Positions 4,469 through 14,503 of a DNA stretch of 64,000 nt are shown here, one piece after another. The position numbers and the translations under genes are program-made. Location of the stretch: NCBI GenBank assembly GCA_000092065.1, contig CP000581.1. One strand, given 5' to 3'. This stretch comes from Ostreococcus lucimarinus (taxonomy: Eukaryota). The notes beneath the pieces are model-generated. The model was not told where the DNA came from. It worked only from the letters and a program-made list of their open reading frames with translations, and did no database searches. The first letter of the stretch is position 1, and each line of letters starts with the position of its first letter.

Positions 4469-6394
4469 TCAGCTCGGTCCCATCGAGATTGGAACACCTT
4501 GCGAGGAAGCCTTGGAGCCAAGTTTTTCCTTCATGGTGTCCGTGGTCGAGCCCGGGGCGTCTTTGTAGTTGCCTAAAAACCTTGAGCGGAGTTCGCGGAA
4601 CATGGCGTCAGCCCTGTTGCCGCTCGTAGCGATGCCATCCTTCGTGCGCGAGACGCCGTCGAGCATGTCGTCGATGGACACCAATTGTCTACCGTCGCGT
4701 ACGCTCAATAATGCGGCTTCGTTGGCGACGTTGGCGAGCTCGGCGCCGGTGAAGCCTGGTGTGGCGCGAGAAATAACGTCGCACACAACGTCGACGTCTT
4801 CCTCGAGATCCAAACCGCGCAAGTGCACTGACAAGATTTGCGCTCTCCCTTGCTGCGTTGGCGGGCCGACAAACACGCGTCGCGTCAAACGACCGGGACG
4901 CAACAGCGCCGGATCGAGCGCGTCCGGTCGGTTCGTCGCAGCTAAAATCAAAATTCCACTGTCCTTGGCGAATCCGTCCATCTCTACCAGCAATTGATTG
5001 AGCGTTTGGTCGCGTTCTTCGTTCAGACCCGCGCCTCGCCGCGATCCGACGGCGTCGAGTTCGTCGATGAAAATAATCGCAGGTCTGGCCTTTCGCGCCT
5101 CGGCAAACAGCTCGCGAACGCGCGCCGCACCGCGGCCGACGAACAGTTCGACAAACTCGGACGCGGCGACGGGGAAAAACGCAACGCCGGATTCGCCCGC
5201 CACCGCGCGAGCGAGTAGCGTCTTACCCGTCCCCGGCGGTCCGACCAAAAGGCACCCCGTGGGAAGTCTGCCGCGAACGTTCTTGTACTTTTCGGCGTTC
5301 TTCATGATTTGCACCAATTCAAAAAGTTCGGCCTTTGCCTCTTGCACGCCCGCCACGTCGGCGAACGTCACCTTGTCGGCTTCGTCTGTGCGCGCAGCCT
5401 TTTTCCGCTTTTTATCGCCCGCACCGCTCTGTCTGTTGATGGCGTTCCGCATGATGATCATGAGCGGAATGATAGGCAACCACATCGCGAGCACGGTGAA
5501 CATACCGCGGGACGCCAATCTCGACACCGCCGCGGGAACCGCGCCGAATTCCACCCCCGCGGCTTCGAGCTTCTTCATCAGCTCTGCGTCGCCGACCAAT
5601 CGTTTCGTCTGCAGCGTTCTCGCACGCCCAACCGCCGCATTCGGCTTCAAATCGTACAACAATCGCGTCGACCCTTCCTCAAATCGCACCGTCGATATCT
5701 TCTTGCCCTTTAAATCCTTCAAAAACGAACTGTACATCGTCGTCGGCACCACCGGCGCCGCCGCCTTCTTCGCGTTGTGTCCCCTTATCGCCATCCCCGC
5801 CCCGACCGTCGCCGCCATCACCAACCCCAGCCTCCCCAGGCGCGTTCTCGCGCTCATCGCGATCGCTCGCGCCGGCGTCGCGATCACCAACCACACCAGC
5901 ACCGCGAACGCGCGTCGCGCCACCAGCCCGAGCAGCAGCGTTCGCGTCGCCACCCAGCGCCACGCCGAGAACGGTTTCCGCTCCACCGGCCCGAGATCAT
6001 CCGACGCCGCGCTCGCGCTCGCGCTCGCGTCATCCTCCCCACTCGCGCGTTCCGTCGCGCCGCCGTCGCCGCCATCGCGCGCCGCCGTCGCCGTCTTCGT
6101 CACCGCGTCCCGCTCGACGTCATTGCCTTCGCGCGCGTTATCCACCCCCTGCGGCGTCGACACCGCGCGCGCGCGGCTCTCGAGCCCCCGCGCGAGCGCG
6201 CCGTTCGCACCCGCATCGCTCGCGCGCGCTCGCGCGCCGAGCGCGGCGCTCGCGACGCCCCGGCGGTCCCGCGAACGCGTCGCGCGCGACGCCGACGTCG
6301 TCGTCGCGAATCCTCGCGCGCGGACGACGCCGCGCGGCGCGCTCGCGCGCGCGCGCGCGGCGCGCATCGCGGGCGACGGCATCGTCGTCGTCAT
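4469..6394 (-). CDS. FtsH-like AAA+ ATPase lacking the M41 zinc-protease motif (FtsHi-like, probably plastid envelope)
   Basis: 641 aa: R/A/S-rich N-terminus (presequence-like), FtsH extracellular-type domain (YSSFLKDLKGKKISTVRFEEGSTRLLYDLK), one TM, Walker A GPPGTGKT, Walker B IIFIDELD, second region of homology. The C-terminus is short and has no HEXXH, which is the architecture of the short plant FtsHi proteins. Confidence 0.7.
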   Translation of the reverse strand: MTTTMPSPAMRAARARASAPRGVVRARGFATTTSASRATRSRDRRGVASAALGARARASDAGANGALARGLESRARAVSTPQGVDNAREGNDVERDAVTKTATAARDGGDGGATERASGEDDASASASAASDDLGPVERKPFSAWRWVATRTLLLGLVARRAFAVLVWLVIATPARAIAMSARTRLGRLGLVMAATVGAGMAIRGHNAKKAAAPVVPTTMYSSFLKDLKGKKISTVRFEEGSTRLLYDLKPNAAVGRARTLQTKRLVGDAELMKKLEAAGVEFGAVPAAVSRLASRGMFTVLAMWLPIIPLMIIMRNAINRQSGAGDKKRKKAARTDEADKVTFADVAGVQEAKAELFELVQIMKNAEKYKNVRGRLPTGCLLVGPPGTGKTLLARAVAGESGVAFFPVAASEFVELFVGRGAARVRELFAEARKARPAIIFIDELDAVGSRRGAGLNEERDQTLNQLLVEMDGFAKDSGILILAATNRPDALDPALLRPGRLTRRVFVGPPTQQGRAQILSVHLRGLDLEEDVDVVCDVISRATPGFTGAELANVANEAALLSVRDGRQLVSIDDMLDGVSRTKDGIATSGNRADAMFRELRSRFLGNYKDAPGSTTDTMKEKLGSKASSQGVPISMGPS

Positions 6395-6617
6395 CGCGCG
6401 CGTCGACCGTCGCGTCGCGCGCGCGCGTCGAACACTGGCGCCGTCGGCGGGCGACTCGTCTCCTCAGTCAGCGACGCGCGGCGACGCGCGGCGACGACCT
6501 CGACGCGCGGCGCGCGCGAGCGGCGCGAGCGCCGTTCGAAGACGTCGGCGCGCGCGCGCCGCCGCGACGTCGCGGCGGCGCGGGACGCGCGCACCGCGCG
6601 AAGAGCCGCGCGACGTC
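6395..6617. promoter_or_regulatory. Divergent (bidirectional) promoter between the FtsHi-like gene (-) and the desulfurase-TtcA fusion gene (+)
   Basis: ~220 bp CGCG-rich spacer between two start codons pointing away from each other. The call rests on position and composition only. Confidence 0.4.
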
Positions 6618-9600
6618 ATGGCGGCGGCTTCGACGACGACGACGCGCGCGCGCGACGACGACGCGGGACGACGCGGGACGACGCGGGACGACGCGATGCG
6701 CCTCGACGCGATCCTCGAGAGCGTTCGAAGGGACATCGTCGGACACGGGGCGACGTTCGGCGGGGCGTACGGGACGAAGTCGCTGGTGTACGCCGACTAC
6801 ACGGCGAGCGGACGGGCGTCGCGAGCGGTGGAGCGGTGCGTCGCGCGAGACGTGCTGCCGATGTACGCGAACACGCACACGTCGACGTCGACGACGGGGT
6901 CGCAGACGTCGTGCTTTCGAGCGGAGGCGAGACAGGTGGTGGCGCAGTGCGTGAACGCGCGGGTGGGATACAGCGATAGACACGCCGACGTGGTGACGTT
7001 TACGGGAAGCGGGAGCACGAGCGCGATCGATCGGTTGGCGCGAGCGCTCGGGATGCACGTACCGTTACCGGTGAACGCGCCGAGGGAAGCGAGGCCGGTC
7101 GTGTTCGTCGGACCGCACGAACATCACAGTAATATTTTGCCCTGGCGCGAGTCGTGCGCGATTGTGGTGGAAATTCCAGAGGAAGAGAGCTCGGGAATGG
7201 TGGACGTGGACGCGTTGCGCGCGGCGCTGCGCGCGTACGCGTCACACGCGACGCTGATTGGAAGTTTTAGCGCGGCGAGTAACGTGACGGGGGTGAGGGC
7301 GGATGTGAATTTAATCACGGAGACGTTGCATCGAGGAAACGCGTTGGCGTTGTGGGACTACGCCGCCGCCGCGGCGTACGTCGACGTCGACATGAACCCG
7401 GTAGTTTTCGACGAAAACACCGGTGCGTTGAATCCGTACGTATACAAAGATGCGATATTTATGTCACCGCACAAGCTTCCGGGAGGGCCGGGTGCGCCCG
7501 GGATTTTAGTGGCAAAACGCGCATTGTTCGTGAACGAAGTGCCGAGCGAACCGGGCGGAGGAACTGTCTTTTATGTCACGAGCACCGATCACCGGTATTT
7601 AAGCAACAGAGTGGAGCGCGAAGAGGGTGGGACTCAAGACATCGTTGGAAGCATCCGCGCTGGCTTGGCGTTCCAAATGAAAGCTAACGTGGGGACGTCG
7701 TTGATTGAAGCGGCGGAGGAACGACTGCGACGACGATTGTTCGACGAGCTGGAGAAGGATGAGAATATTTGCTTACTCGGACCTCGGGCGAATTCGACGA
7801 CGAAGCGCTTGCCTATTGCGTCGTTTCTCATACGAGCCCCAGCGGTGGATTCGAAAAGTAGGTTTCTACACTACTCATTCACGTGCGCGGTGTTGAACGA
7901 CGTCTTCGGCGTGCAGGCGCGAGGCGGATGCGCGTGCGCAGGGCCGTACGCGCATCGTCTTCTCGGAATATCTCCAGCTGATGCAGCCGCGATCGAGGCG
8001 CACTTGCTAGACAAAGCCGAAGTATTACGACCTGGTTTTGCGCGCGTCAGTTTGCCATACTTCGCGTCTGATGCTGAGATTGAGTACACGTTGGCCGCGG
8101 TACGCGCCGTCGCCGCGCACGGCTGGCGCTTGCTGCCGATGTATCGCATGGACGCCAAGACGGGTGAATGGAGACACGCCCTTCGAGCACGAAGTTTCCC
8201 TGAACGCAAGTGGCTCGCACACATGCAGTTTCCTGTAGATTCGGAAGAAATACACGAATCACCGCCGAGTGAAGAGGAGATATCTCGCCGACTCGACGAA
8301 CAATTGAGCGTCGGGATGCGCATTCTGGAAACGTGCGGTCAGTATCGCGACGGTGAACAACAAGGCAAAGCGAAGAACGGTCAGTTACGCATGCCGAATT
8401 CAGGTGGTATGGCTGCGGATGAGCGCATGGTGCTCGCTGGAGGCCGCGGCGACGACGACTCGAGGCTCGCTTACGACGAGGGCGAAGAGGACGACGACGC
8501 TCCTGAGCCGACGACGAATATCGAGCGCGGCGACGCGCTTCGTTGGTTCATGTTTCCGTCCGAGGCGGCTGCCTTGCTTTCAATCGCGCTTCCAGAGCAC
8601 TCGCACAGCGGAATACTACCACTTAGTTACGTGCCTCCAACTGGGACGATCACCGGCGCATTGCGTCCGCCGAATATTTGCGGCGCTCGCGAATCGGCAC
8701 CAAACGCACACGGTCAAAGTTACCGAACCGAAAGCAGGAAACACCCACTGCGCGTGACGGAAGAGTCGGGAAGTATTCGATCGGGCTTGATTCATCAGCG
8801 AGCGGCACCGTTTTGTGTAGGTGATGCACCGAGCGCACCACAGCCTTCAGTCGCAGAGGCTGAATTTCGCGCCGAATCGACGCTCGAACCGCGCGTGCGA
8901 GAGCTCACACTCGACGTGTCACCACCGATGAAAGAAGTGACGGTGACGGAAGATAGCATGTCCGAAAAACGTGTTCCGATGACAAATGATCAAACGCTTG
9001 ATGGTGCCGTCAGAGAAAAAGAAGTGAAAAAGAAGAGACACAAGTTCGCCAAGCCGTCACCAAAGTTGTTGCGCATGGTGAACCAGGCGATACAAGACTT
9101 TGACATGATTCAACCCGGAGACCGTATTTTGCTTGGTCTTTCGGGAGGTAAAGATTCTCTCGCAATGTTACACATTCTGATGTGCATGATGTCGCGTTAT
9201 CCGCCCGGAACATTTACTCTCGCGTGCGCGACAGTAGATCCCGGCACCGAGGCGTTCAATCCTCGGCCTTTGATTCCTTATGTGGAATCTCTCGGCATCG
9301 AGTACCATTATCTCGAAGAAGAAATCATGGCGATGGCGGACGCGCACATGACTGGTGACAGTATTTGTGCGTTCTGCGCGCGTATGAAACGGGGCGCTCT
9401 ATACACGTGTTGTCGCAAGTATGGTTACAACAAGCTCGTTCTAGCACAACATTTAGATGACTGTGTGGAGAGTTTCCTGATGAGCACAATGTACAACGGA
9501 ACGATGCGAACGATGAAAGCGTCGTATCTCATCGACGAGGGTGATATCACTGTCATTCGTCCCGCCATTTACTTACGCGAGAAGGCTTTACGTGACTTTT

Positions 9601-10112
9601 CTTACGAAGCGGGATTGCCCGTCATCAACGAAAATTGTCCGGCGTGCTTCGAAGCGCCCAAGGAGAGACAGAACATCAAGAAACTTTTGTCTCGCGAAGA
9701 AAGTTCGTTCCCATCGCTGTATTCGTGCATGCGTAATGCGCTAATGCCACTTTTTGATCCTGCCGCTATGGATATACTATCTATGATTCGAGAAACAATC
9801 GATGGGAGAAACAAGTTTAAGGAGCGCGCCAAGGCGCAACGCGCCGAATCTCTCGCAAACGGGAAGTGCAATCCCAAACGCGGAGAAGTTTCAATCGCCA
9901 AGAATGGTGCGAACACCGAGCCTGGGACTGAGCTTAACATCAACGAACCGATAGAACTGTCCAGTGCGTCAGAGATGCAGCTACTGGCAGAGTTAAATAA
10001 AAGGCGTCGTGAACGCATTCGCCAAACCACGAAAACCAACGACAGTGAATTCGACGCCGATTTAACGGAGAAGCAAGTGTTTTGTACCGCAGAAGGATGC
10101 AAACGTGAGTAG
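6618..10112 (+). CDS. Fusion protein: N-terminal class-V aminotransferase / cysteine-desulfurase-like PLP domain + long acidic linker + C-terminal TtcA-type PP-loop ATPase (tRNA 2-thiocytidine synthetase-like)
   Basis: Part of the 1704-aa ORF 4998..10112. Its first ~540 codons are antisense to the FtsHi gene (low-complexity translation) and are excluded. In-frame ATGs lie at 6618 and 6696. N-domain: MSPHKLPGGPGAPGIL (SxHK PLP-lysine motif), YANTHT, RGGCACAGPY (candidate catalytic Cys). C-domain: LGLSGGKDS (PP-loop), CAFCARMKRG and CPAC Cys pairs, LAQHLDDCVESFLMSTMYNGTMRTM (compare TtcA GHHRDD...MFYGG). There is no stop codon through the ~250-aa linker (8.2-9.0 kb). Confidence 0.65.
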   Translation: MAAASTTTTRARDDDAGRRGTTRDDAMRLDAILESVRRDIVGHGATFGGAYGTKSLVYADYTASGRASRAVERCVARDVLPMYANTHTSTSTTGSQTSCFRAEARQVVAQCVNARVGYSDRHADVVTFTGSGSTSAIDRLARALGMHVPLPVNAPREARPVVFVGPHEHHSNILPWRESCAIVVEIPEEESSGMVDVDALRAALRAYASHATLIGSFSAASNVTGVRADVNLITETLHRGNALALWDYAAAAAYVDVDMNPVVFDENTGALNPYVYKDAIFMSPHKLPGGPGAPGILVAKRALFVNEVPSEPGGGTVFYVTSTDHRYLSNRVEREEGGTQDIVGSIRAGLAFQMKANVGTSLIEAAEERLRRRLFDELEKDENICLLGPRANSTTKRLPIASFLIRAPAVDSKSRFLHYSFTCAVLNDVFGVQARGGCACAGPYAHRLLGISPADAAAIEAHLLDKAEVLRPGFARVSLPYFASDAEIEYTLAAVRAVAAHGWRLLPMYRMDAKTGEWRHALRARSFPERKWLAHMQFPVDSEEIHESPPSEEEISRRLDEQLSVGMRILETCGQYRDGEQQGKAKNGQLRMPNSGGMAADERMVLAGGRGDDDSRLAYDEGEEDDDAPEPTTNIERGDALRWFMFPSEAAALLSIALPEHSHSGILPLSYVPPTGTITGALRPPNICGARESAPNAHGQSYRTESRKHPLRVTEESGSIRSGLIHQRAAPFCVGDAPSAPQPSVAEAEFRAESTLEPRVRELTLDVSPPMKEVTVTEDSMSEKRVPMTNDQTLDGAVREKEVKKKRHKFAKPSPKLLRMVNQAIQDFDMIQPGDRILLGLSGGKDSLAMLHILMCMMSRYPPGTFTLACATVDPGTEAFNPRPLIPYVESLGIEYHYLEEEIMAMADAHMTGDSICAFCARMKRGALYTCCRKYGYNKLVLAQHLDDCVESFLMSTMYNGTMRTMKASYLIDEGDITVIRPAIYLREKALRDFSYEAGLPVINENCPACFEAPKERQNIKKLLSREESSFPSLYSCMRNALMPLFDPAAMDILSMIRETIDGRNKFKERAKAQRAESLANGKCNPKRGEVSIAKNGANTEPGTELNINEPIELSSASEMQLLAELNKRRRERIRQTTKTNDSEFDADLTEKQVFCTAEGCKRE

Positions 10113-10153: not shown

Positions 10154-13100
10154 TTAAACTAACAATTGCGTGTCGTCGTCGTCAGCGCCGAGTTCAATAG
10201 TTTCGTATCCTTGCGAGAGGTCGATTTCATCGGACGCTTGTCTCTTGGCTTTGCGAGCCGGCGCGGGGCTAGCGCTTTTATGATTCAATTCCTGCTTCTG
10301 ACGCGCTGCCTCCGATTTTGCACACGATTCGGCGTAAGTTACGTATTCTTTGCACTCCTTTGCGCCTGGCAAGCTCTCAATCATCAGGCGAATGTGCGGG
10401 AGCGAGTAGCCAAAAAACTCTGGACCAGAAATCGCTGTCTTCTTCGCAACTTCGCCTCTAGCCTCGCGCGCAACTTTCGCTCGCTTGAGAACTTCAGCCC
10501 ACGCGGCGGTGGCGCTTTTGGCGACGATCCGCTCGCATCCGTGTTCGGCGGTGAGGGTGAACTGTGGTTCACCTTTTGGCCCTTCCGTGATCTCTTGCTC
10601 CCATTTACAGCGCTCGTCCAAGTTGTCCAATCGAGGGTACACGCGCACCGTCTTGAATCCGACAGGCAAAATGTACTGCTGCGTCACGAAGTCTTTTTTG
10701 TTCTTTATCTCTCCCAAACATTCGATCATGACGCCACTAACTGGACCTATCGGCATACGCAGATTACCGTCGTTGTCTCGCTTTGACTCTTTCAAAAATG
10801 TTTGCGCCTTGAGTAGCTTTTCCATCGTCGTACCAGAACCACTTCGCGGAGCGCCTTTAGGCTTCTTCTCACGCGGTAACTTGGGCGCCTTGGGCACCTT
10901 GGGCTTCACTGGGCGCTCAATTTTAGGCGGAGGCTCGTAAGATTTACCTCCGAGAACATTGAACACGCGCTTCACGCGATTACTCAAGAACCTTCCGTGG
11001 ATCCACTCGGGCTCGGCGTTCACGGCTTCTGTTTCAGTTTCGGCAATCGCGATTTCATCTTCGACGGGATGTTTCATCTTCTTTTCCTTCTTCGGCTCTG
11101 GCGCGATTTTCCCCGCAAAGTTGACGGCGAACGGCAAATCAACGTCGTCGCGGATTTCAGAATATTTCCCGAATCCATGTTTGAGCGTACCAACGACCAA
11201 CGCGCGATCGTGATCTTCTGTCCACCATTCCGCCAACGGCTCGGCGTGAAGTTCGGGGATGGGCATGCCTTCAGCCGTCAGGGCATTAGCGAATCCACCG
11301 GCCTTCTGAACGGCGCTAATGCCGCCTTGCAAGAGCTCGAGGCGAATCATATCGTCGCTGGCTCGTCCACGCAGGAAGTTATTGAAACCTTGCTCAGCCA
11401 TGATGTACGTGAGGTAATCTCGGCCTTCTTCTTCCGGCAGCGCTTTTTCATCGGCGTCTTCGTCAACCGTCACGACAGCGACAAGATTCGGGAACAGTTC
11501 AGACGAAAGTGACTTCATCGCTTCTTCGACGTAGCATCTACAGAAGAGCTTCACATGCGCGAGCGTTTTGTTCTCCTTGAGTTGCGAACGCTCTTTGATT
11601 TGCTCCCACATGCTCCAACCAAACAGCATAAATGATGCAACAACACGTTTGCGTTCACCCCACGACCACTGGAACGCATTCACGGAGTTCTGCTTCTCCA
11701 TCGCCAGCTTTTCAGCAGCTTGGAGTTTCTTCATGAGCTCCTCGGCTTCCGCCTTGCGTTCCTCCTCTGCCGCCGCCGCCTCGGGCATGAGCTTCTGCCA
11801 GAAATTAGGATCATCGAGCGAGACGCCATCGGCTGACCCACCGCCGTCGATAAATGTCGCAGTCGCAAACGTACTCGGTCCCGCATCATCCGTGTTCTCC
11901 TCCGAGCTCTTGATCAGTTTCTTTTCAGACTTGGCGAGAATATCGACGATGCTTTCGTTGCACCATTGTTGCGCGCGACTTTCATCCTCAGTGAACAGCC
12001 CGTACGCGCCGTGCTTGAGCAACTCTTCGATCTCTTTTCTCGACGCCGCGGCTGATTTCTCTTCCTTTTCTGCGCTCCCAAAGATGGCTTGTTCGAGACC
12101 GAGTTTCATCGACGCCCGCGTAAACATTTCCTTTTCGTACGTGGCCCGCATGACGAGTCGATATACCTGGACTTGGCGCGTTTGCCCGATGCGATGCGCT
12201 CTCGCGAGCGCCTGTGCATCGTTTTGCGGATTCCAGTCGCTGTCGAACATAACGACAGTGTCAGCCTGGACGAGGTTGATGCCTTGGCCTCCGGCGCGCG
12301 TGGAGAGGAGAAACAGAAAAGTGTCAGAATCCTCAGCGCAATACTTGTCGATCGCTTCTTGACGTGCTTTGCCGGTGATGCTACCGTCAAGTCGCACGTA
12401 AGAGTGACCTCGTGCGCGGCAATAATCCTCCAGGACGTCCAAAACGCGCGTCATTTGACTGAAGATGAGAGCTCGATGCCCACCTTCGCGAAGATGCGGA
12501 AGGAGCTTGTCCAAGAGCTGCAACTTTCCCGCGCTCGATACCAAGGCAGTGGTGCTCGCGCCTTCCGGCGCGATGGCAGCTTCGACGCCGTCGAGCAAAA
12601 ACGGGTGCTGGCAACACTTACGGACTTCCATCATGATGTTCGCAAAGTTTGCAAAACTCTCTCTCGAGTCGCAACCTTGCCGAAGAAAGGAAAAGTTACG
12701 CTCAAATAATGCACGATAGCACTTTTTCTGCAAAGGCGCGAGCTCGCACTCGACAAGTGTCTCACTTCGCGGTGGTAACTTTTGCTCGACGTCGCGCTTC
12801 AGTCGACGCAGCAAGTACGGACCAAGAACCTTTTGTAAACGCTCGACTTGCGCAGCCTTTGCCATGCCTCCAAACGCTTCTTCAAACTCCTCCGCGTTGG
12901 AGAAGTGCTTAGAATCGACAAAGTTCAGCAACGACCAGAGCTCGGTGGTGTTGTTTTGAAGCGGAGTGCCCGTGAGTAAGCAAATGCGCTCCACCGCGAG
13001 GCTGTTCAAATCGTTCCCAAGCTTACCTCCAACTCGTTTCAAGCGATGCGCTTCGTCGACGACCATCGTACTCCATTTTGCCTTCGCGAAAGATTGGCGA

Positions 13101-14503
13101 TCGGCAGTAATCGTTTCATAAGTAGTGAGGACGATATTAGCCTTAAACGCTCGCGATATGCTCTGGGTTTCGTCAACTGGGTGATACCAGTCGTGTTCTC
13201 GCGCGAATTCGCGACCGGCTTGCTTGCCGACGTGCGTCACCACGTACGCGTCCGGGACCCAGCGCTGCGCCTCGCGCTCCCAGTTCACAATCGTTGAAAG
13301 GGGAACGACGACAAGAGCAGGGAGACCTGGCCGCACTTGCAAGCAGTGATGTATGAGAGCTAGCGCCTGCGCAGTTTTCCCGAGACCCATCTCGTCCGCC
13401 AAGATGCACCCGCGTCCGGCTCGGAAGTTGAACGCCATCCACTTCACGCCTTCCTTCTGATACGATCGCAACTCGTCGGACTCTCCGTACGAGTCGCGCA
13501 CGGTGTCGGCATCGTACGAACTCCACGCATTGGCGACGTCCTCATCCGTCTCCGCATCAACGATGGCTTGGCGCTCGCGCGCCGCTGAAGCGCGGCTTCG
13601 GACGCGTTCAAACTCTTCCAAAGCGCTCGCACCACCTTCCATCTCGCGCACGGCAGTTATATCTTCCCAATTCGTCTCGTCATAACTCATTCGAGACCAC
13701 TTCACGCACACGAGTGTTCTGTCCACCTCTTCAAACATCGAAAAGACGCGGTCGACGACCAAGTAATCCGGTTTGACGTCCACGCACGGCCCGAGCTCCT
13801 TTGGATACTTATCGAAATACCTCGCCACACGCATCTTACCCTGCACACCACATGTCGGATCGTTTTCCAACGCCGTGACTTTCACCCACGTGCAATGCGC
13901 GTACGACGTACCTTTCCACTTTATCAACGTCTCCGTCTCCTCCTTTTCGCATCGTCGCCACCCGACGATGCTCTCCACTTCTCCCAACCGCTTGCTCTCC
14001 GCCGATTCTCGCGCCCACTGCCCTTCTTCCCACGCATGCATCCCACGCATCGCGTCTCTCGCGCACTCCATCGTCACAGACCGCTCGATCGCGTCCGCCT
14101 CCCCTCGCCTCGCCTCGCCGTCCAGCACGTCTCCCCAATCCACCTTTGCCCGCTTCTCAGCGCTCCCTTCCTCTCGTCCTTCGCTCACAGGCGCCTTCGA
14201 CGAATTCATGGGTTTCATCTCGAGCAGATCTTGCGCCGCGAGATCGACGTTCCCGTGTCTACGCTCGAGCACGGCGCTGATTACGTTCGCATCGAGCTCT
14301 TTGAATGCGCCCTCGAGCGAGCGTTGTTCGGAGCGATAGAGCGGACGCGTGCGTGGTCGCGACGCGGGAGACATCGCGGCGCGCGCGATGTGCTCTGTGT
14401 CACCGCGGGTCGCCGCGCGGGACGTCGCGCGCGACGTGGTGTGATGCGGTGCGCGCGCGTTCGATCGATCGACAGCTCGAGACTGAAATTTGAAATCAAA
14501 CAC
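10154..14503 (-). CDS. CHD-type SNF2 chromatin-remodeling ATPase (tandem chromodomains + SNF2 helicase) with an N-terminal CUE-like domain
   Basis: 1449 aa. CUE-like LEGAFKELDANVISAVLERRHGNVDLAAQDLLE near the N-terminus. Two chromodomains (ETLIKWKGTSYAHCTWV; LVCVKWSRMSYDETNWEDI). SNF2_N DEMGLGKTAQ...DEAHRLKR and Helicase_C ...RAHRIGQTRQV. C-terminal SANT/SLIDE-like WTEDHDRALVVGTLKHGFGKY. Start may instead be the second Met (MSPASRP). Confidence 0.8.
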   Translation of the reverse strand: MFDFKFQSRAVDRSNARAPHHTTSRATSRAATRGDTEHIARAAMSPASRPRTRPLYRSEQRSLEGAFKELDANVISAVLERRHGNVDLAAQDLLEMKPMNSSKAPVSEGREEGSAEKRAKVDWGDVLDGEARRGEADAIERSVTMECARDAMRGMHAWEEGQWARESAESKRLGEVESIVGWRRCEKEETETLIKWKGTSYAHCTWVKVTALENDPTCGVQGKMRVARYFDKYPKELGPCVDVKPDYLVVDRVFSMFEEVDRTLVCVKWSRMSYDETNWEDITAVREMEGGASALEEFERVRSRASAARERQAIVDAETDEDVANAWSSYDADTVRDSYGESDELRSYQKEGVKWMAFNFRAGRGCILADEMGLGKTAQALALIHHCLQVRPGLPALVVVPLSTIVNWEREAQRWVPDAYVVTHVGKQAGREFAREHDWYHPVDETQSISRAFKANIVLTTYETITADRQSFAKAKWSTMVVDEAHRLKRVGGKLGNDLNSLAVERICLLTGTPLQNNTTELWSLLNFVDSKHFSNAEEFEEAFGGMAKAAQVERLQKVLGPYLLRRLKRDVEQKLPPRSETLVECELAPLQKKCYRALFERNFSFLRQGCDSRESFANFANIMMEVRKCCQHPFLLDGVEAAIAPEGASTTALVSSAGKLQLLDKLLPHLREGGHRALIFSQMTRVLDVLEDYCRARGHSYVRLDGSITGKARQEAIDKYCAEDSDTFLFLLSTRAGGQGINLVQADTVVMFDSDWNPQNDAQALARAHRIGQTRQVQVYRLVMRATYEKEMFTRASMKLGLEQAIFGSAEKEEKSAAASRKEIEELLKHGAYGLFTEDESRAQQWCNESIVDILAKSEKKLIKSSEENTDDAGPSTFATATFIDGGGSADGVSLDDPNFWQKLMPEAAAAEEERKAEAEELMKKLQAAEKLAMEKQNSVNAFQWSWGERKRVVASFMLFGWSMWEQIKERSQLKENKTLAHVKLFCRCYVEEAMKSLSSELFPNLVAVVTVDEDADEKALPEEEGRDYLTYIMAEQGFNNFLRGRASDDMIRLELLQGGISAVQKAGGFANALTAEGMPIPELHAEPLAEWWTEDHDRALVVGTLKHGFGKYSEIRDDVDLPFAVNFAGKIAPEPKKEKKMKHPVEDEIAIAETETEAVNAEPEWIHGRFLSNRVKRVFNVLGGKSYEPPPKIERPVKPKVPKAPKLPREKKPKGAPRSGSGTTMEKLLKAQTFLKESKRDNDGNLRMPIGPVSGVMIECLGEIKNKKDFVTQQYILPVGFKTVRVYPRLDNLDERCKWEQEITEGPKGEPQFTLTAEHGCERIVAKSATAAWAEVLKRAKVAREARGEVAKKTAISGPEFFGYSLPHIRLMIESLPGAKECKEYVTYAESCAKSEAARQKQELNHKSASPAPARKAKRQASDEIDLSQGYETIELGADDDDTQLLV

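Follow-up and report, generated by a model that had tools for sequence, protein, structure and literature searches.

We analysed a gene within a 64-kb stretch of the Ostreococcus lucimarinus genome (64,000 nucleotides of contig CP000581.1, hereafter the window, whose first letter is position 1) in which a cysteine desulfurase and a tRNA thiolase are encoded as a single polypeptide. The coding sequence of this fusion occupies positions 6618..10112 on the + strand and specifies 1164 amino acids (aa) followed by a TAG stop, with no intron needed. Its N-terminal part (N module) has as its core a type II, SufS-like cysteine desulfurase that uses pyridoxal phosphate (PLP; aa 36–535, 6723..8222, +), and its C-terminal part (C module) is a TtcA-type PP-loop [4Fe-4S] tRNA thiolase (aa 813–1048, 9054..9761, +); between them lie a conserved extension of the desulfurase and a flexible linker. 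From domain assignments, conserved catalytic residues and the distribution of the fusion, we consider it probable, with substantial room for doubt, that its product is a cytosolic tRNA cytidine-32 2-thiolase with its own sulfur supply, that is, a synthase of 2-thiocytidine at tRNA position 32 (s2C32).

The 1164-codon frame begins at its first in-frame ATG (6618) and closes at a TAG at 10110–10112, giving exact limits to the single open reading frame (ORF) of ~1160 codons described in an earlier, sequence-only reading of this DNA; every motif quoted there (SPHKLPGGPG, RGGCACAGPY, SGGKDS, CAFC, CPAC and LAQHLDDC...MYNGTMRTM) is present. Upstream, the same frame remains stop-free for a further 540 codons, back to 4998, antisense to a divergent AAA gene. 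Because this extension (4998–6617) contains no ATG, 6618 is the first possible start; M27 offers an alternative one. The open stretch at 4998–6617 (+) exemplifies the spurious long ORFs that high GC content produces in the O. lucimarinus genome, and several further overlapping ORFs of 100–400 aa in the region around the fusion gene are likewise of this GC-driven type. Along the gene itself, GC content falls from 0.68 to 0.53 in the 5' to 3' direction, and GC content at third codon positions declines from 0.91 over codons 1–35 to 0.70 across the PLP domain and 0.55 over the linker plus TtcA module.

Such a setting invites the explanation that adjacent desulfurase and TtcA genes flank a non-coding stretch that is free of stops by accident: the frame was taken from a mechanical ORF list, high-GC DNA yields spurious long ORFs (as the frame open back to 4998 illustrates), and the gene changes in composition along its length. 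We regard such a gene-model or assembly artefact as highly improbable, however. Given the local base composition, a run of 277 stop-free codons between the Pfam domains (aa 536–812) would arise by chance with a probability of 1.4e-5, and each of the other five frames contains 5–10 stops over the same stretch; the sequence-only reading was right that the open linker is unlikely by chance, and its figure of ~0.002 is corrected here to a stronger one. An identical protein (P0001, 100% identity) is encoded, alongside the same neighbouring genes, by a metagenome contig from an independent assembly. In addition, a cluster at 72% identity holds complete 1158–1160-aa ORFs from Ostreococcus mediterraneus MMETSP transcripts, and a 1160-aa transcript product aligns with the fusion in one BLASTP alignment covering residues 2–1164 (71.6% identity), so that the linker is present in the mature mRNA of a congener. 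The supposed spacer also contains an invariant tryptophan (W643) and confidently modelled structure, and the fusion is conserved over eukaryotic supergroups. Taken together, these genomic and transcript comparisons confirm the fusion as a real single gene, and the joining of a PLP enzyme to a TtcA thiolase in one polypeptide, as first proposed, is borne out by Pfam and NCBIfam domains, P0001 and the O. mediterraneus transcript.

Searching 5.8 billion proteins, we recovered more than 100 full-length sequences with both Pfam domains. Holders of the fusion include green algae (Ostreococcus, Prasinoderma and Pseudoscourfieldia), stramenopiles (oomycetes, labyrinthulids, brown algae, diatoms and Triparma), alveolates (Chromera, Vitrella, Perkinsus, Amoebophrya and Gregarina), Euglena, the amoebozoan Vermistella and the sea star Patiria miniata, with further fused ORFs from transcriptomes of Euglena, Paraphysomonas, Mucochytrium, Ditylum and Vermistella; a preprint adds molluscs, birds and insects (bioRxiv 10.64898/2026.09.27.754811). 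Related algae, where the sequence-only reading suggested looking for the same fusion, thus include O. mediterraneus, Prasinoderma and Pseudoscourfieldia among its holders. This distribution indicates an old and widespread fusion, found in most eukaryotic supergroups and not an algal peculiarity. Both family motifs, GGCxCAGPY and LRWFxxPSE, occur in the O. lucimarinus protein. When the TtcA domain alone was searched against 1.84 billion representatives, 391 matches were obtained at E up to 1e-30. In the best 150 of these, 72 sequences reach 900 aa or more, and all but one (71) include the N module; the shorter ones appear mostly to be fragments, and no clearly stand-alone close relative of the fused TtcA domain was found. 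In the Chromera velia protein (P0237), a C2H2 zinc finger of the double-stranded RNA (dsRNA) type is inserted in the desulfurase module at aa 178–201, which accounts for the name 'C2H2-type domain-containing' given to alveolate members.

The architecture as such is already known. Public annotation displays it, in a JGI entry named 'selenocysteine lyase/cysteine desulfurase/tRNA(Ile)-lysidine synthase', and the sea-star protein is named 'tRNA 2-thiocytidine biosynthesis protein TtcA' in UniRef; the fusion was also reported for animals in the above preprint, dated 28 September 2026.

We next consider the N module, which profile, structural and alignment comparisons concur in identifying as a SufS-like type II desulfurase rather than an IscS-like enzyme. 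Pfam assigned Aminotran_5 to aa 57–489 (E = 5.8e-30), and the SufS subfamily ranked first among NCBIfam models with 104 bits (103.7; E = 9.6e-30), compared with 16 bits for IscS (E = 0.0045) and 24 bits for NifS. A PDB sequence search returned only type II desulfurases (SufS/CsdB and Nfs2, E ~1e-15), and in a Foldseek comparison the predicted structure matched SufS/Nfs2 with a template-modelling (TM) score of 0.85. The class-V aminotransferase fold with a PLP lysine that the sequence-only reading had described is therefore upheld, and by NCBIfam, PDB, alignment and Foldseek the module belongs with the desulfurases and not with the decarboxylases it had allowed for. Its comparison with IscS as the natural donor is replaced by one with SufS/CsdA. 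The profile searches it had called for (Aminotran_5 and ATP_bind_3/TtcA) assigned both modules.

Multiple alignment shows that the N module conserves 12 of 14 active-site positions of E. coli SufS. SufS H55 corresponds to H87, the PLP-stacking H123/H124 to H169/H170, N175 to N222, D200 to D247, S223/H225/K226 to S283/H285/K286, T278 to T339, R359 to R435, the catalytic C364 to C440, and R379 to R476. The two histidines lie in an EHHSN motif (7119..7133, +) that is invariant among 100 aligned fusions, the set to which all conservation values below refer. K286 (7473..7475, +), the PLP Schiff-base lysine within SPHK, is likewise invariant, as is C438 (7929–7931), and C440 (7935–7937) is at least 90% conserved. 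The last two residues form a CxC pair within RGGCACAGPY (7920..7949, +), where the sequence-only reading had placed a candidate active-site cysteine; by its alignment with SufS Cys364, C440, the second cysteine of the pair, is the candidate catalytic residue. The N module, only ~26% identical to E. coli SufS, represents a distinct subfamily.

Close prokaryotic counterparts of this module are stand-alone proteins. Scanning the genomes of 185,579 prokaryotic species with an N-domain alignment yielded at least 587 relatives, of which the best 80 are 46–50% identical to the fusion over aa 36–520 and come mostly from Acidimicrobiia and other Actinomycetota, with representatives in Gammaproteobacteria, Myxococcota and other phyla. 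These bacterial proteins are ~555 aa long, carry SPHK, EHHSN and RGGCSCAGPY, and terminate with LRWFxLP ~80 residues past a GxWxH motif; an example is found in Neptunomonas antarctica (NZ_LJSI01000015.1, locus L011, 5980–7647). A neighbour-joining tree places the N modules of eukaryotes as sister to the bacterial proteins, with a long branch separating both from SufS; mean identity is 56% within the eukaryotic set, 49% across the two groups and 26% to SufS. These relationships indicate that the N module was inherited, together with its tail, from the stand-alone bacterial family. There is no specific NCBIfam model for this family. All-against-all ORF clustering of the 80 loci revealed no consistent neighbour within 6 kb, the largest real neighbour family being an ABC ATPase at 20 of the 80 loci.

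Comparison with the bacterial proteins also redefines the middle of the fusion, which the sequence-only reading had taken as an acidic linker of ~250 residues. The stretch at aa 536–812 is indeed mildly acidic (pI 5.05; 48 D+E versus 34 K+R), and its second part, from about residue 691 to 812, is predicted to be disordered, but aa 536–690 are conserved and structured, and ~120 of these residues form the tail of the desulfurase. This C-terminal extension (aa 536–655, 8223..8582, +) is the counterpart of the C-terminal end of the bacterial stand-alone proteins and closes with LRWFMFPSEA (aa 641–650, 8538–8567, +), in which W643 never varies and its neighbours R642 and F644 reach at least 90% conservation. 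Because the C-terminal LRWF motif of the bacterial proteins recurs in mid-'linker', residues 36–655 represent an entire bacterial protein. A conserved, structured and eukaryote-specific segment follows (aa 656–690, 8583..8687, +), with P673 and P684 near-invariant. In the AlphaFold2 (AF2) model, helix 552–572 and residues 634–690 have predicted local distance difference test (pLDDT) scores of ~94–98, and within the middle stretch only residues 719–806 score below 50 (31–39). The model thus places the true flexible linker, of low occupancy and conservation and predicted to be disordered, at aa ~691–812 (8688..9053, +), indicating a length of ~120 residues, not 250–280. Homology of the tail is detectable only through the LRWF motif and the multiple alignment; tblastn of linker and tail against the 80 bacterial loci gave no matches. 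The conserved elements of the tail (helix 552–572, LRWF and aa 656–690) form a candidate docking element. As possible relay cysteines of the linker we considered C573, C688 and C733 and rejected them, as none is kept across the fusion family, and no hidden acceptor or other domain was detected in the linker or the C-terminal tail by Pfam at E up to 1.

The C module (aa 813–1048) was assigned to TtcA by several criteria, in agreement with the TtcA-like PP-loop ATPase proposed in the sequence-only reading. Pfam detected ATP_bind_3 at aa 837–1002 (E = 1.1e-11), and TtcA ranked first among NCBIfam models with 194 bits (E = 3.1e-57, aa 800–1053), far ahead of TilS (47 bits), TtuA (34 bits) and NcsA (30 bits; 29.9); the PDB match to NcsA reached only E = 7.5e-6. 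Alignment with E. coli TtcA extends over 245 aa at 34% identity (E = 2e-46) and is collinear across the entire catalytic domain. Within it, SGGKDS (aa 842–847, 9141..9158, +), the invariant PP-loop for ATP binding and adenylation, lines up with its E. coli counterpart; C917 and C920 of CAFC (9366..9377, +) align with the CSLC pair, Cys122/Cys125 of E. coli TtcA; and C1007 and C1010 of CPAC (9636..9647, +) align with the CNLC pair, whose second cysteine is the third ligand, Cys222 of Bouvier 2014. In E. coli TtcA, a homodimer, Cys122, Cys125 and Cys222 bind an essential [4Fe-4S] cluster, activity in vitro is supported by cysteine plus a desulfurase, ATP and dithiothreitol (DTT), and the cluster's free iron site has been proposed to receive the sulfur (Bouvier 2014, PMC4081106). 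In that paper, Cys200/Cys219/Cys222 are offset by ~9 from RefSeq NP_415860.1 (CNLC at ~210–213), while Cys122/Cys125 agree; we therefore made the correspondences by motif, not by number. With its PP-loop and three [4Fe-4S] cysteines kept, the TtcA module looks functional.

Beyond the C module lies a helical, poorly conserved C-terminal tail (aa 1049–1164, 9762..10109, +) with no Pfam match. It ends with FCTAEGC (aa 1155–1161, 10080–10100, +), a Mamiellophyceae-specific element: F-C-x-A-[DE]-G-C is kept in Ostreococcus/Micromonas-like homologues down to ~52% identity and fusions from outside this group lack it. The motif may provide a redox or dithiol function particular to the lineage. One metagenomic fusion (P0064) carries a Thioredoxin_8 domain after its TtcA module, at aa 1028–1122. 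Since TtcA needs DTT in vitro, one may speculate that Thioredoxin_8 or FCxA[DE]GC supplies a built-in dithiol reductant.

These assignments suggest a reaction sequence in which the N module (aa ~36–690) would take sulfur from free L-cysteine and hold it as a persulfide on C440, and the C module (aa ~813–1048), carrying a [4Fe-4S] cluster on C917, C920 and C1010, would adenylate C2 of cytidine 32 in target tRNAs at the expense of ATP. Sulfur from the N module, received at the cluster's free iron site, would then replace the activated oxygen, the fusion substituting for the separate handover from IscS to TtcA in bacteria. Such a relay from a fused donor, which the sequence-only reading had inferred by Rosetta-stone logic as a self-contained module, is the best-supported mechanism; from the domains and conserved residues we infer desulfurase activity, intramolecular sulfur transfer and C32 as the target. 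SufS is a homodimer, and because TtcA is one as well, the fusion probably works as a dimer. The AF2 model has a predicted TM score (pTM) of 0.70 for 1164 residues despite 173 residues with pLDDT below 50, which suggests a defined relative placement of the two modules.

The sequence-only reading had also entertained an organellar location, an idea that we dropped. The variable N-terminus (35 residues, 6618..6722, +; AF2 pLDDT below 50 at residues 1–17) is short and acidic, without a conserved extension or the character of a targeting peptide; several homologues begin 8–12 residues ahead of the conserved core, and the only s2C32 reported from a eukaryote is in a cytosolic-type tRNA-Lys(UUU). On these features the protein is most likely cytosolic. 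No tRNA genes, sought as candidate substrates, were found within the 64-kb window.

Several points weigh against a cytosolic, self-supplied s2C32 synthase. The first set concerns the role of the N module. Type II desulfurases normally require a docking acceptor (SufE, SufU or CsdE), and no such domain was matched by Pfam at aa 535–813 or 1049–1164 at E up to 1. Two of the SufS active-site positions differ, with Q203 replaced by A250 and H362 by C438, the family-specific second cysteine, and the score of the module lies below the SufS subfamily cut-off (103.7 versus 475 bits, TIGR01979). No ttcA gene or TtcA domain occurs within 6 kb of the bacterial relatives in the 80 loci, no member of that bacterial family is known to have been characterised biochemically, and we found no biochemical study of any fusion-family member in the literature. 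The N module might accordingly not be a persulfide donor for thiolation at all, and instead be a C–S lyase, a selenocysteine lyase, or a builder or repairer of the [4Fe-4S] cluster of TtcA. Its ~26% identity to SufS, the loss of Q203, the extra invariant cysteine of the CxC pair, the missing acceptor domain and bacterial homologues unlinked to ttcA or to suf/isc genes at the 80 loci would fit such a role. Retention of the catalytic cysteine and of the residues that bind substrate and PLP in SufS (12 of 14 positions) argues otherwise, and its fusion to an enzyme that inserts sulfur offers the simplest functional connection, so that we judge a non-donor N module unlikely.

A second reservation concerns the substrate, because the C module scores below the TtcA equivalog cut-off (194.1 versus 272 bits, NF007972). 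The fusion could be genuine and its thiolase directed to a target other than tRNA C32, such as another nucleoside position, s2U or another RNA; the 34% identity to E. coli TtcA leaves space for this, the fused TtcA domains cluster apart (the best 150 of the 391 matches being fusions or fragments), and some alveolate members carry the inserted dsRNA-type zinc finger. We think a different target improbable, given that TtcA far outscores TilS, TtuA and NcsA, that collinearity with E. coli TtcA is kept throughout the catalytic domain, and that s2C32 occurs in an animal, Aplysia californica, whose only TtcA homologue is the fusion (bioRxiv 10.64898/2026.09.27.754811).

A third reservation is that the chain might be cut within the disordered linker to release two proteins. 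In that case the enzymes would act separately and the fusion would serve only co-expression and stoichiometry, an option raised in the Aplysia preprint (bioRxiv 10.64898/2026.09.27.754811) and compatible with the disorder and poor conservation of the ~120-residue linker. Module order and architecture are nevertheless kept in more than 100 sequences of distant lineages, the pTM of 0.70 hints at a defined arrangement of the modules, and no conserved cleavage motif was seen in the linker in the family alignment; we consider cleavage unlikely. The preferred reading remains an intact fusion in which the desulfurase supplies a TtcA-type C32 thiolase.

The same comparisons lead to a broader proposal, which we put forward as doubtful. 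The N module and its ~555-aa bacterial relatives could be an unrecognised type II subfamily, marked by the CxC pair and the LRWF tail, in which an acceptor of the SufE/SufU type is not needed. In eukaryotes it would provide a cytosolic sulfur route for tRNA thiolation that is independent of mitochondrial Nfs1, and by Rosetta-stone logic the bacterial proteins would be dedicated TtcA donors.

The fusion gene is closely flanked on both sides, by spacers of 223 bp and 41 bp, a compactness in keeping with an Ostreococcus-like prasinophyte. Upstream, a divergent intergenic region (6395..6617; 223 bp, 82% GC), presumed to be a bidirectional promoter, is common to the fusion gene and a gene for an FtsH-like AAA protein of 641 aa (4469..6394, −; AAA and AAA_lid_3 domains). 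This protein has a long low-complexity N-terminus and no detectable Peptidase_M41 domain, and it may be of the FtsHi type, with an inactive protease. Downstream and convergent, after a gap of 41 bp, lies a gene for an SNF2/chromodomain remodeller with FYRN and FYRC, an unusual combination (10154–14503, −).

Before the 2026 preprint, s2C32 and TtcA were considered bacterial and archaeal; the present gene places a candidate eukaryotic s2C32 synthase in one of the smallest free-living eukaryotes. If its desulfurase is active, the fusion would represent a cytosolic cysteine desulfurase dedicated to a single tRNA modification and would bear on the old question of the sulfur source for cytosolic thiolation. 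For the large bacterial ~555-aa family, the link provides a first hypothesis of function. To the known architecture, our sequence comparisons add the identification of the N module as type II with C440 as the candidate cysteine, its origin in the ~555-aa bacterial family, the finding that half of the 'linker' is desulfurase tail, and the spread of the fusion over most eukaryotic supergroups. Ostreococcus has a compact genome and is genetically manipulable, which makes it convenient for testing the enzyme.

Among known systems, the closest is the Aplysia 'IscS-TtcA' (CsdA-TtcA) fusion LOC101861551, the only TtcA homologue of an animal in which s2C32 was found in tRNA-Lys(UUU), the first such report in eukaryotes (bioRxiv 10.64898/2026.09.27.754811). 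We compared it from the description in the preprint, with the sea-star orthologue as a sequence stand-in. Both proteins, ~1000–1300 aa long, combine a COG0520-type desulfurase, a spacer and a TtcA-like module, and they share the PLP lysine, a CxC pair (C448/C450 in Aplysia, C438/C440 in Ostreococcus), the SGGKDS PP-loop and the C...CxxC...CPAC arrangement. The sea-star protein (XP_038055890.1) is 54% identical to that of Ostreococcus in the TtcA module and 40% over the portion of the N module that aligns, and has RGGCACAGPYA and LRWFMLPSEA. Whereas the preprint left the catalytic cysteine unplaced and called the module IscS-like, our alignment equates C440 with SufS Cys364 in a type II enzyme; with IscS and NifS at 16 and 24 bits against 104 for SufS, the label 'IscS-TtcA' is imprecise. 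The preprint also treated the entire spacer as unconstrained, in contrast to the conserved desulfurase tail that we recognise in its first part. The Ostreococcus group differs further from Aplysia in its added C-terminal FCxA[DE]GC.

Each module can likewise be set beside its separate relatives. E. coli TtcA (b1344) shares the PP-loop, the CxxC and third cysteine for [4Fe-4S], and a collinear domain at 34% identity, but it is a stand-alone protein of 311 aa that receives sulfur from a separate IscS, whereas the Ostreococcus domain is the C-terminal third of 1164 aa. With SufS/CsdA (E. coli and B. subtilis SufS, Arabidopsis Nfs2), the N module has in common the fold (TM 0.85), PLP lysine, histidine stack, aspartate, both substrate-binding arginines and a catalytic cysteine in an RxGxxCAxP loop; it departs from them in its ~26% identity, the Q203-to-Ala and H362-to-Cys replacements, a C-terminal extension of ~120–150 residues ending in LRWF, and the lack of a detectable SufE/SufU/CsdE partner domain. 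The bacterial ~555-aa family matches it more closely (46–50% identity over aa 36–520, with SPHK, EHHSN, RGGCSCAGPY and the LRWFxLP ending) and differs in being stand-alone, without a TtcA domain or a conserved neighbour in the 80 loci.

Finally, Ncs6/Ctu1–Ctu2, which makes cytosolic s2U34, belongs to the same superfamily of PP-loop, [Fe-S]-dependent thiolases and, as proposed for the fusion, targets the anticodon loop in cytosolic tRNAs, but the Ostreococcus module matches the NcsA model far less well than TtcA (30 versus 194 bits). The two systems would differ in their sulfur supply: eukaryotic s2U34 is fed by the Nfs1/Tum1/Uba4/Urm1 thiocarboxylate route, whereas the Ostreococcus enzyme would draw on its fused desulfurase. 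A published account (PMC2651780) names the Urm1 route.

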